A stretch of 20,000 bases of DNA, from assembly GCA_050261575.1 (NCBI GenBank), contig JBLNDL010000013.1, forward strand, positions 46,073 to 66,072. Direction: 5' to 3'. The stretch comes from Sphingomonadaceae bacterium. GTDB taxonomy: Bacteria; Chloroflexota; UBA6077. The position numbers are program-made. Position 1 is the first letter of the stretch. Every line of letters begins with the position of its first letter. Below, piece after piece: positions 15,001 through 18,000 of this stretch.

Positions 15001-18000
15001 AAGTGTTTTGCGAGAAGGCGCTGCTAAAAGTTGCCCCATGAATACCTATCACATCCTTCTGGCAGACCCAAACCCGGTCGTACGGAAACTGCTGGCGGTG
15101 ATTCTGGACGGCAGCCGGTATCGATTGAGCTTCGCCTCGAACGGAGAGGAGGCCCTGGGCATCGCCCTGGTGGATCCTCCGGACCTGGTGATTTCGGAGG
15201 TGCGGCTCGAGCGGCTGGACGGCATCGCCCTGTGCCAGCAGTTGAAGCAGCAGCCGAGGGGCAATCGTACCAAGGTTCTCATCCTCACCACTTCCACATC
15301 CGAGTGGGACATGCGGCGTGCGCGGCGCGCCGGCGCCGAATGGTACATGACCAAGCCGTTCAGCCCTGCTGTGCTCATGCGGCACGTGGAAGAAGCGGCG
15401 GAGGAGAAGGAGACCGGGAAGAGCGAGGTCCAGGGCACGCTCGTCGATCTTCAGACCAGCTAGTCTCACATCTTCGAGGCCACCGTAACGGCCTCAATGT
15501 TCTCCACCCTGAACATCATCACCCGCTTCTTCTGCCGACATCGTCCCACCAGATACCAGGCACCAAGGTAGGGCATCAGCAGATGGGGCTCGACGATGGG
15601 ATCGGGCAGGGCTGCGCCGGCCTTGGAGGAGAGGTGCAGCCGCACCGGTCGCTTGTCGAAGAGGGCCTCGGTCAGGGCGAGGAAGACCCTCTCCTGGAGG
15701 GCCGGTTCTGGATTCCCCAACGACTCCAAGCTCTTTCGGATGAGAGGCTGCAAGTGCAGGGGAAAGACCGCTGGCAGCTTGGAGAGGAGGGATCGGAGCG
15801 GTTCCGGCGGGATCGAGCGATCCTGAGCGGCGACCTTCAGCGCCGACACTAGGGCCCGGGCTTCCGAGAAGGAGAAGTCCAGCACGACGTGGTCGTCGCC
15901 GGCCAGGAAGCGGTAGCCCTTCCGGCGAACGAGCGGGAAGCGGAGTTCCTCCCGGATGACGCGCAGGTCCTCCTGGACCTGGCGCTCACTGAGGGCATAG
16001 CGCTCGGCGAGCCTGCGGCGGCTGGTGCCGGGGTTCTCGGCGATGTGCTCGATGATCGCCCAGATGCGACTGAGCCGGTCGATTGCGAGTTGATCCCGTT
16101 CCACCGTGCGCGGTCACCTCTCGGGGAATTGCTCGCAGGTTCGATGCGGCCGCGGGGAAGACTGACAAAACAAAAACCGCGGTCAACCACATCGAGATGG
16201 GTCCGGTCGACCAGCGGCCAGCCGTCCACCGACGCGGGCCCAACCCACCGGTGGATACCCCGTGCGTAGACGACTCCGAAAGGCTGCCTGCCACAACAAG
16301 AATGCCGAGGGCAGTCAGACGACTCCACGTCAATGGCACCCCGGATAGGACTCGAACCTACGACCTTTGGGTCCGCAACCCAACGCTCTAATCCGCTGAG
16401 CTACCGGGGCATGGGCGGAGGAGATGGGATTCGAACCCATGACAGAGGTTTATAGCCCCTGTAACCGCTTAGCAGGCGGCCGCACTAGACCAACTATGCG
16501 ACTCCTCCACACGAACGAAGACCTGGAGTGATCACTGCCCAAGATGGCGGCGGAGGGGGAGGGATTCGAACCCCCGGGGCTCGCGCCCGACCGTTTTCAA
16601 GACGGCCACCATAAACCACTCGGACACCCCTCCAGGTGTACGCGTATTGTGTTGTTAACACGTGCGGCAGACACGCCGCTCCACACGTGGATTCTAGCCG
16701 ACCAGCCACCTCATGTCAACGTGCCACCGGCCATCATGAGCCGAGAACCGGCCAGAGACCATTCGCCATCAGCTTTCAGCTAGTGCCCAGGCTTCGCTCG
16801 GCCACGCCGAGGGCACAACGCTGACCGCTGATGGCTGATAGCTGTCGTGGCGGAGAGGGTGGGATTTGAACCCACGAGGCTGTTACACCTACCCGCTTTC
16901 CAGGCGAGCGCCCTAGGCCACTAGGCGACCTCTCCATGCAGGCTATTGACGTTCAACCGTGGGCTACGGATGCCAGCCACCCCGCCTATCGTCCCGAGGC
17001 GGATGCTGACAGCCCGATGCCGACGGCTGCTCGGGCGGAGGGAGAGGGATTTGAACCCCCGAGGCCTTTCGACCTACCCGATTTCGAGTCGGGCGCACTC
17101 AACCGGACTATGCGATCCCTCCAAGAGGCCGCAGCCCTAGAGGGGCCGCGGCCCACAGTCTAAAGTATAGCATAGGGGCAGGTACACCACAACCAGCGCG
17201 TCTGCTATACTCCACGCACCATGCCCGGCTCCGACCAGGGCTATCCTTTGGAGGACGAATGATCATCATCACGCCGGAAGCTGCCAAGGAGCTCCGCGAT
17301 CTTGCTGCCAGCGGTGAGGCAGCGGTACTCAAGTTCGATGCCGAGCCCGACAACGAGGGAGGATACGACTGCTCGGTGGGGCTGGTGGACACTCCTCCAT
17401 CCGATGCTATCGTCGAGGAGATCGCTGGGGTCAAGGTCGCCTTCCTCGGCATGGCGGAAAGCGTCTTCGAAGGGGCAGTGGTCGGGCTCAGCCCGGAGGG
17501 AGAACTGACCCTGGAGATGATCGAGGAAGACTGCGAGCACTGCGAGCACGAACACGGCTGCGACTGCGGCGAGGGCAACGGTTGCAGCTCCGAAGGCCAC
17601 ATCTGATGCCCGACGGGCCGGCTCCACGACCCGAACGGTCGCCGGTATACGACAGCGACCTTGGGCGCATCTGCCCCTCATGCGGCAAGCCGGTGAAGGG
17701 CTGCGTCTGCCAGGCGAAGAAGGTGATTCCCCAGGCTGGGCCGAAGAACGACGGAGTAGTCAGGGTCTCTCGCGACCGCCGGAATCGACACGGCAAGACT
17801 GTCACGGTGGTCACCGGGGTGCCGGGCCACCCCGCGGCGGTCGAGGATCTGGCGACGAAGCTGAAGCGGTTGTGTGGCTCGGGCGGCACCGTGAAGGAAG
17901 GGGTCATCGAAATCCAGGGCGACCATCGGGACCTGGTGCTGTCGAAGCTGCTCGAGATGGGGTACAAGGCCAAGCTGGCAGGGGGATAGTCGCGAGTAAT

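Follow-up and report, generated by a model that had tools for sequence, protein, structure and literature searches.

The window analysed, a stretch of 20,000 nt from a Chloroflexota draft genome (G000; 103 contigs, 3.72 Mb, 65.4% GC, rated 100% complete), carries a minus-strand run of tRNA genes in the order Ser(cga), Ser(gga), Ser(tga), Ser(gct) and, last, Arg(gcg), with the gene of arginyl-tRNA synthetase (ArgRS) on the same strand ~0.9 kb upstream of the cluster. The surroundings of tRNA-Arg(GCG) are a core housekeeping region that includes IF-2, RbfA, TruB, FtsZ, EF-G, RuvC and ArgRS. The features are as follows.

16334..16410, minus strand: tRNA-Arg(GCG), 77 nt, CCA encoded (ARAGORN; Rfam RF00005, 67.1 bits)
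16412..16509, minus strand: tRNA-Ser(GCU), one base upstream of tRNA-Arg(GCG) (ARAGORN, Rfam)
16549..16633, minus strand: tRNA-Ser(UGA) (ARAGORN, Rfam)
16848..16935, minus strand: tRNA-Ser(GGA) (ARAGORN, Rfam)
17033..17123, minus strand: tRNA-Ser(CGA), the first gene of the cluster (ARAGORN, Rfam)
18046..19704, minus strand: ArgRS, 552 aa (Pfam Arg_tRNA_synt_N, tRNA-synt_1d, DALR_1)

The tRNA-Arg(GCG) gene reported at 16334-16410 in the first-pass annotation proved to be sound, as it was called by ARAGORN and folds into a cloverleaf that scores above the RF00005 gathering score (67.1 vs 29 bits). Its anticodon loop reads UU-GCG-GA, with G37; a G1-U72 pair and G73 are present, and the D-loop, AGCGGAUUA, carries an A at the place that we number 20 by our own reading. 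The arginine identity elements of E. coli are C35, G36 and A20, and all three were found in this tRNA, C35 and G36 in the anticodon and A20, under the same numbering, in the D-loop. Because tRNA-Ser(GCU) lies just one base upstream, the two tRNAs are probably produced as one transcript.

Running ARAGORN on the whole draft gave 51 tRNA calls and one tmRNA, and the arginine anticodons gcg, tcg, ccg, tct and cct were each found once, while acg was found on none of the 103 contigs. CGA and CGG are covered by the isoacceptors UCG and CCG, at the following places.

C77:10773-10850: tRNA-Arg(tcg) (ARAGORN)
C11:89472-89545: tRNA-Arg(ccg) (ARAGORN)

Each of the four CGN codons is in use, and together they make up ~79% of the Arg codons (CGT 7.4%, CGC 28.3%, CGA 12.1% and CGG 30.9%, from 1871 long ORFs). 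Under the wobble rules, G34 would read CGC and, via G:U wobble, CGU as well, tRNA-Arg(UCG) would read CGA and probably also CGG, and tRNA-Arg(CCG) would read CGG. TrmD (313 bits vs a cut-off of 195) and MnmG (810.9 bits summed) were both detected in the draft; m1G37 may be made by TrmD on the G36-G37 loop, and U34 of the UCG tRNA is predicted to be modified by MnmE/MnmG. From the genes alone, we infer that CGN codons are decoded without inosine in this organism. The sole A34 call of the draft, a "tRNA-Gly(acc)" at C77:51058-51149, was rejected as a real tRNA and is read as a false positive because it is irregular with a poor cloverleaf, has zero Rfam tRNA matches even at E≤10 and sits within open frames. 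With no A34 tRNA, TadA would therefore have no tRNA substrate.

The top match of the TadA model NF008113 in the draft reached 51.6 bits in a 391-aa frame, and this frame is RibD (TIGR00326, 350.5 bits). The remaining genes of the CDA fold encode a ComEB/dCMP-deaminase-like protein of 158 aa and a cytidine deaminase (NF004064, 149.4 bits), so that only three such genes are present and all are assigned to functions other than TadA, in agreement with the earlier reading of the 51.6-bit match and of the other two genes. A phylum-specific profile was built from 12 Chloroflexota TadAs, which score 228-256 bits against it, and was run on the 40,504 six-frame ORFs of ≥50 aa of the draft; no tadA orthologue was found among them, and only two proteins matched, RibD with 48.3 bits and the ComEB/dCMP-deaminase-like one with 24.1 bits. 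The claim that this genome reads the CGN box with GCG, UCG and CCG and has neither tRNA-Arg(ACG) nor TadA was thus upheld by ARAGORN, NF008113 and the Chloroflexota profile. Inosine could nevertheless be hidden if a very divergent or non-homologous deaminase edited an A34 tRNA missed by the gene finders; a non-homologous enzyme would lie beyond the reach of sequence searches, and ARAGORN did make the one A34 call described above. We give this explanation almost no credence, since that call is irregular and unmatched in Rfam, none of the 53 tRNAs of a closed relative (see below) has A34, each of the three CDA-fold genes has another assigned function, and GCG, UCG and CCG together suffice for the four CGN codons.

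Taken by itself, the absence of ACG and tadA from the source genome is weak evidence, because this is a 103-contig draft in which the tRNA-Tyr, tRNA-Ile and tRNA-Ala(UGC) genes are also missing, as had been noted before and was verified with ARAGORN. As tRNA genes close to rRNA operons frequently remain unassembled, both tRNA-Arg(ACG) and tadA might exist in unassembled parts of the genome. Against this stands G025, a closed single-contig member of class UBA6077, in which all 53 RF00005 matches were typed and all 20 amino acids are covered: arginine is served by the anticodons gcg, tcg, ccg, tct and cct (twice), neither acg nor any A34 tRNA occurs among the 53, and NF008113 scores no higher than 39.4 bits, in a frame of 395 aa. 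Furthermore, when tRNA-Arg sequence patterns for G34 and A34 were applied to the class genomes of ≥90% completeness, the G34 pattern matched 31 of 37 and the A34 pattern none. The draft itself is rated 100% complete and holds tRNA-Arg(GCG), the stand-in for ACG in TadA-less genomes, directly behind Ser(tga)-Ser(gct), where family f66 has ACG. A gap of assembly is accordingly very improbable, and because the closed G025 also lacks ACG and TadA, the inosine-free set is a lineage trait, as the first-pass annotation had argued. These results demonstrated that the draft and the closed genome share this gene set and that both lack ACG and tadA. We conclude with high confidence that the gene in the window is an ordinary, predicted functional tRNA-Arg(GCG) that stands in place of the usual bacterial tRNA-Arg(ACG), in a genome with no A34 tRNA and no tadA.

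Other class-level observations made earlier fared differently. The count of 22 GCG and no ACG genes among 30 class loci was reproduced, the other eight loci carrying tcg (five), ccg (two) and tct (one), but the description of GCG as the end of a conserved tRNA-Ser cluster held only in part, since the link to Ser was present in just 12 of the 22 GCG loci. That none of 66 class genomes exceeds the NF008113 cut-off of 150 bits was likewise reproduced; as an argument, however, it is weak, because in the tool's control just half of the ringing reference genomes (6 of 12) reach this cut-off and because short TadA-like frames of 63-91 bits occur in 13 class genomes.

The distribution of the two tRNA states was determined in a phylum sample of 401 Chloroflexota genomes of ≥90% completeness. 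The G34 pattern matched 311 and the A34 pattern 31 of these, with both in a single genome (G076) and neither in 60, and the G34 search showed phylum-wide conservation of the GCG arm. A strong NF008113 match (E≤7.5e-43) was present in 29 of the 31 A34 genomes, while no G34 genome (0 of 311) had a match at E≤1e-38; the tables were cross-tabulated by hand, and genomes within one clade are not independent observations. G076, carrying both patterns, has an NF008113 match of only 68.5 bits, and G255 has ACG and no TadA match. The strict A34 pattern was missing from 9 of 38 strong-TadA genomes; a relaxed loop pattern recovered a plausible ACG loop in two of these nine (G327 and G406), whereas the other seven yielded no clear loop type, the GCG-loop matches in two of the seven (G199 and G402) being indistinguishable from chance. 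A BLAST search with the f66 ACG tRNA against ten strong-TadA genomes without either pattern returned other tRNAs only (Arg tct/ccg, Gly, Thr, Met and Ala). Across the phylum, therefore, ACG co-varies with TadA and GCG with its absence. The G34 state extends to Dehalococcoidia, SAR202 and one complete cultured genome, and the canonical system of ACG plus TadA is retained by a minority of Chloroflexota families. In the genome contigs database, the exact 78-nt pattern of the tRNA from L166 had no match and its 39-nt core matched 55 records. TadA-free GCG is the majority and normal state of Chloroflexota, far wider than class UBA6077, and the earlier claim consequently holds as to a lineage trait (closed G025; A34 in 0 of 37) but not as to one peculiar to the class (G34 in 311 of 401).

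In two f66 genomes, tRNA-Arg(ACG) lies right after Ser(tga)-Ser(gct), that is, in the slot of GCG in the draft. Sequence identity was tried as a test of ACG/GCG orthology and was uninformative, since it was 68-79% among all Arg isoacceptors and did not set ACG and GCG apart; because it does not discriminate isoacceptors, orthology stands on synteny alone. The shared position suggests that a single substitution at position 34 of an ACG gene at this locus could have given rise to GCG. Acquisition of GCG from elsewhere, for example from an archaeon or another G34-using bacterium, with later loss of ACG and tadA, would agree with the use of G34 throughout Archaea, as given in literature excerpts, and tRNA identity cannot separate orthology from paralogy of the two genes. 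We nevertheless hold such a transfer to be unlikely, as the gene lies in the housekeeping region described above, its place at the end of Ser(tga)-Ser(gct) is that of ACG in f66, one A-to-G substitution at position 34 would do, and the GCG arm is conserved phylum-wide. Change in place at position 34 is hence our preferred reading. On an IF-2 tree (a single gene, unrooted, obtained by a short search with reading frames chosen by 4-mers shared with the query), at least six A/G switches are required, and class UBA6077 falls within a 26-row clade that holds no A34 row and also includes small-genome families with the anticodon arm common to named Dehalococcoidia records. The GCG state predates class UBA6077.

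In canonical bacteria, homodimeric TadA deaminates tRNA-Arg(ACG) to ICG. The system studied here concerns the same codon box and the same type of locus (after tRNA-Ser genes, as in f66), but position 34 is G, TadA is absent and CGA needs a separate UCG tRNA. Bacteria without A34 tRNA and TadA are documented, in excerpts of published work, for Mollicutes, Thermotogae, Spirochaetes, CPR and "some deeply branching bacteria" (PMC3711424, PMC8007984, PMC6063277, PMC8629427 and a review), and the first-pass annotation, although right about the absence of tRNA-Arg(ACG) and TadA in the lineage, overstated it as an unusual trait. The inosine-free CGN set seen here is real but ordinary, and the Chloroflexota case joins a solution already published for other bacterial groups. 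According to the excerpt of Yokobori et al. (2013, PMC3711424), the Pneumoniae group of Mollicutes likewise lacks tadA; these tiny AT-rich genomes are without tRNA-Arg(CCG) too, and the loss was read as one part of genome reduction, whereas the genome studied here, at 3.7 Mb and 65% GC, retains CCG, and ~79% of its Arg codons are CGN. Thermotogae and Spirochaetes, phyla other than Chloroflexota, include free-living bacteria with GCG instead of ACG and TadA lost, as here (PMC8007984, in excerpt); an excerpt of Diwan and Agashe (2018, PMC6063277) reports that Spirochaetes, among other clades, have lost the I modification, and loss of the target tRNA accompanies that of the enzyme in the same two excerpts. 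CPR use the identical three-tRNA solution, with GCG for CGU/CGC and UCG plus CCG for CGA/CGG, but have small genomes and, in some, reassigned CGA/CGG (excerpt of Shulgina and Eddy 2021, PMC8629427). Archaea, in the literature excerpts, also have G34 tRNA-Arg and no A34 deaminase, while the tRNA described here lies in a bacterial core region with bacterial synteny. Chloroflexi are not named for the GCG/TadA-free trait in the main-text excerpts of PMC8007984, PMC8629427 and PMC6063277, and among papers on Chloroflexi, Chloroflexota or Dehalococcoides, judged by title or the start of the abstract, none was found on a TadA, inosine or anticodon trait.

The tRNA-Arg(GCG) gene itself is of little import, being a normal tRNA with a job known from other bacteria. 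What is corrected is the textbook simplification that TadA is required in bacteria, as a major phylum, cultured and closed genomes included, is mostly free of it. For such lineages, TadA should consequently not count among the completeness markers or "essential genes", codon usage and tRNA adaptation need to be predicted with G34 in mind, and claims of TadA-dependent mRNA editing are not extendable to these organisms. The repeated A/G switching within one phylum also provides material on the loss of an essential modification enzyme.

A separate observation concerns a TadA-derived protein in two GCG-using families, in which the catalytic Glu is replaced by Val (HAE to HAV) in all six cases examined. 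Yeast Tad3 has Val at that glutamate position. Eukaryotic ADAT3 likewise lacks this glutamate, as stated in part of a review. Should the HAV protein prove to be conserved and to bind RNA without catalysis, bacteria would have a counterpart of the ADAT2/ADAT3 split. Only tentatively, and with more doubt than belief, do we put forward the joint reading that "ACG tRNA plus essential TadA" and TadA-free GCG were swapped repeatedly in free-living, large-genome Chloroflexota, a natural experiment in which such an HAV protein would form that parallel.

As for the short TadA-like proteins of 63-91 bits in class UBA6077, none was found in the source draft with the TadA profile on six-frame ORFs. A tree of 12 of them did not support 11 as TadA: ten form their own clade (99/99) beside guanine-deaminase-like proteins, and that of G053 is placed inside the guanine-deaminase-like clade. 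The protein of G027 lies on a long branch within the TadA clade.

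Five tRNA genes, all on the minus strand, were identified in the window by ARAGORN, and all five exceed the gathering score of the Rfam tRNA model. The window is a core housekeeping region, with genes for IF-2, RbfA, a DHH phosphoesterase, TruB, RibF, a ParA-like ATPase, FtsZ, EF-G, YebC, RuvC and ArgRS. The tRNA cluster and its neighbors are as follows.

15466-16104, minus strand, WYL-domain/PafC-like HTH regulator, directly downstream of the tRNA cluster
16334-16410, minus strand, tRNA-Arg(gcg), Rfam tRNA score 67.1 bits against a gathering score of 29
16412-16509, minus strand, tRNA-Ser(gct)
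16549-16633, minus strand, tRNA-Ser(tga)
16848-16935, minus strand, tRNA-Ser(gga)
17033-17123, minus strand, tRNA-Ser(cga)
17582-17989, plus strand, SUI1-domain gene, between ArgRS and the tRNA cluster
18046-19704, minus strand, arginyl-tRNA synthetase (ArgRS), on the strand of the tRNA cluster and ~0.9 kb upstream

The tRNA-Arg(GCG) gene is 77 nt long with an encoded CCA, and carries the anticodon loop UU-GCG-GA, a G1-U72 pair, G73 and, in our own numbering, an A at place 20 of the D-loop. Because one base separates it from tRNA-Ser(gct), the two genes are likely co-transcribed. At positions 12200-12799 and 17259-17606 of the plus strand, no Pfam match was obtained at E≤1e-5.

The source draft genome (G000; 103 contigs, 3.72 Mb, 65.4% GC) yielded 51 tRNA calls and one tmRNA by ARAGORN. 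It has one gene each for the arginine anticodons gcg, tcg, ccg, tct and cct, and no acg was called on any of the 103 contigs, in agreement with the first-pass annotation. The sole A34 call, a 92 nt 'tRNA-Gly(acc)' at C77:51058-51149 (locus L315, 259-350), is probably a false positive, since its drawn structure is irregular, it sits within open frames and it has no Rfam tRNA match even at E≤10. Genes for tRNA-Tyr, tRNA-Ile and tRNA-Ala(tgc) were likewise not found in the draft by ARAGORN, as had been cautioned, and an assembly gap was weighed against a lineage trait using G025, a class member assembled as a single contig (3.71 Mb). All of its 53 RF00005 matches were fetched and typed; they serve every one of the 20 amino acids, with Tyr, Ile(gat) (twice) and Ala(tgc) (twice) among them. 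Arginine is served by gcg, tcg, ccg, tct and two cct, with no acg or any other A34 tRNA among the 53, and the top match to the TadA profile NF008113, in a frame of 395 aa, reaches 39.4 bits. The closed genome thus bears out that the lack of tRNA-Arg(ACG) and TadA is a lineage trait rather than an assembly gap.

The top NF008113 match in G000 was 51.6 bits, in a 391-aa frame. Three genes exceed the PF00383 cut-off, and NCBIfam models assigned them to RibD (TIGR00326, 350.5 bits), cytidine deaminase (NF004064, 149.4 bits) and a ComEB/dCMP-deaminase-like protein (TIGR02571, 94.4 bits, under its cut-off). Because the NF008113 cut-off is strict, being passed by only 6 of 12 reference genomes in the tool's control, a custom profile was built from 12 Chloroflexota TadAs, which themselves score 228-256 bits on it. 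Run over the six-frame stop-to-stop ORFs of G000 that reach 50 aa (40,504 in all), this profile had just two matches, RibD at 48.3 bits and the dCMP-deaminase-like protein at 24.1 bits. Neither profile detected a TadA, and its absence from G000, as first annotated, held under the custom profile.

By wobble rules, tRNA-Arg(GCG) would read CGC and CGU, tRNA-Arg(UCG) would read CGA and probably CGG, and tRNA-Arg(CCG) would read CGG. All four CGN codons are in use: across 1871 long ORFs of G000 the arginine codon shares are CGT 7.4%, CGC 28.3%, CGA 12.1%, CGG 30.9%, AGA 4.6% and AGG 16.7%. The G36-G37 loop of tRNA-Arg(GCG) is the type of site methylated by TrmD, which was found in G000 (313 bits), as was MnmG.

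Used as a BLAST query, the window's tRNA-Arg(GCG) matched 56 of the 66 genomes of class UBA6077. The best 30 class loci comprised 22 GCG and no ACG, reproducing the earlier count; the remaining eight were tcg (five), ccg (two) and tct (one). Additional matches in six genomes of family f3 were likewise GCG. A tRNA-Ser gene is present at 12 of the 22 GCG loci, so the tRNA-Ser linkage, described as conserved class-wide, holds in only part of the class; tRNA-Lys(ctt) is the neighbor at three loci. Of the class genomes, 37 reach ≥90% completeness; the G34 pattern was found in 31 of these and the A34 pattern in none. The G34 pattern undercounts, since G064 is among its six misses, yet is GCG by ARAGORN.

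None of the 66 class genomes reached the NF008113 cut-off, the same count as before, but 13 carry short TadA-like frames at 63-91 bits. For one such protein the closest solved relative was E. coli TadA (77.5 bits), with guanosine/guanine deaminases just behind (62-66 bits). In a tree of 36 deaminases that placed 12 of the 13, ten formed their own clade (99/99), sister (95/94) to a guanine-deaminase-like clade; that of G053 lay inside the latter, and that of G027 fell within the TadA clade on a long branch of ambiguous placement. The ten proteins of the separate clade and that of G053 were rejected as TadA on these positions, and all checked class genomes with such frames carry GCG. A ~150-aa HAE/PCWMC deaminase family, sister to the guanine-deaminase-like proteins, is the source of the 66-91 bit class matches (G048, G044, G043, G047, G046, G041, G040 and G045 of f3; G055 and G059 of f7; loci L042-L047, L062, L064, L066 and L067).

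The survey was extended to 401 phylum genomes at ≥90% completeness, using the A34 pattern TAGNNYN6YTACGRAN{13,14}GTTCRA and the same pattern with G34; reversed-pattern controls matched 7 and 11 genomes, respectively. The G34 pattern was found in 311 genomes, the A34 pattern in 31, both in one (G076) and neither in 60, and the NF008113 cut-off was passed by 31. Cross-tabulation by hand indicated that all A34 genomes but G076 and G255 (29 of 31) match NF008113 at E≤7.5e-43, and that none of the 311 G34 genomes does so at E≤1e-38. Conversely, the 38 genomes matching at E≤1e-38 include 29 with the A34 pattern and none with G34; of the remaining nine, G327 and G406 show ACG loops under a relaxed pattern, and the other seven stayed untyped, the GCG-loop matches of two of them, G199 and G402, being indistinguishable from chance. 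The counts take in the unpublished genomes G009, G046, G089, G206, G290, G298 and G339, on which the conclusions do not depend; leaving out G206 and G290 changes the A34 figures to 27 of 29. All 12 fetched A34 loci were tRNA-Arg(acg) by ARAGORN, and in two f66 genomes the ACG gene follows Ser(tga)-Ser(gct), in the slot occupied by GCG in the window. Most of the phylum shares this state, GCG without ACG or TadA. Records that match the tRNA arm exactly bear titles naming Chloroflexota, including 'Chloroflexi bacterium UBA6077'. The GCG arm found in the single-contig genomes of 1.4-2.1 Mb is shared by 55 named records, for the most part from Dehalococcoidia, SAR202 and Dehalogenimonas; one is the complete Candidatus Lucifugimonas marina JH545 genome.

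Two side observations concern individual assemblies. G076 (f29; L119, C310:11041-11079), the sole sampled genome with both patterns, has a TadA-like match of only 68.5 bits. It may represent a transition or, with 420 contigs at 91% completeness, a mixed bin. Exact Chloroflexota tRNA-Arg(GCG) arms also turned up in MAGs bearing the labels Gracilibacteria, Ilumatobacteraceae, Oligoflexales and Actinomycetota (L173, L177, L207 and L225), possibly on mis-binned contigs.

The feature proposed by the first-pass annotation, a CGN box read by GCG, UCG and CCG without ACG or TadA, is real and its mechanism was correctly read; it is an instance of an already published pattern. Mollicutes that lost tadA use GCG plus UCG (Yokobori 2013), ArgACG presence correlates with tadA and GCG replaces ACG in all sequenced Thermotogae and Spirochaetes (PMC8007984), and CPR use GCG, UCG and CCG (Shulgina and Eddy 2021, PMC8629427, where Rafels-Ybern 2019 is the reference given for inosine not being used in 'some deeply branching bacteria'). 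Diwan and Agashe (2018) infer that TadA was present at the bacterial root and was lost several times, in each case together with its target tRNA and with non-target tRNAs gained. Chloroflexota are not stated to have the trait in the passages of PMC8007984 or PMC8629427, nor was this found among titles and abstract openings in a literature search; Rafels-Ybern 2019 or the supplements of Diwan and Agashe may already cover the phylum.

Two side results are more unusual: a single phylum has switched repeatedly between the two states, and families f26 and f45 carry TadA-like proteins with an HAV motif. In an IF-2 tree (81 rows, about one per family, 586 columns, short search, no outgroup), ACG genomes spread over at least three regions: a clade of f61, f22, f32 and f39 with the GCG family f36 nested inside; f75 adjoining f54, f45 and f26, where two GCG genomes from the family of G406 (ACG) group as its sister; and f74, f38 and f66 intermixed with GCG families. 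At least six A/G changes are required over the 70 typed rows. The 12 class rows fell within a starred clade of 26 rows (22 G34, four untyped, no A34). A TadA tree recovers, with weak support, the same two groupings (f39/f22/f32/f61 and f26/f38/f66/f74); this would fit vertical descent of TadA with repeated loss, one possible direction of change in the absence of a root. A ~145-aa TadA-derived protein, at 100-128 bits on NF008113, groups within the TadA clade as a clade of its own (99/98). The loci examined are as follows.

Family f26: L154 (G406), L155 (G073), L157 (G182), L160 (G153)
Family f45: L156 (G378), L159 (G385)

In all six, the catalytic motif HAE is changed to HAV and the PCxxC zinc motif is kept; the protein looks like a conserved non-catalytic TadA relative. 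The f26 and f45 genomes with it carry tRNA-Arg(GCG), and G406 has the HAV protein together with a true TadA (184.5 bits) and an ACG loop.
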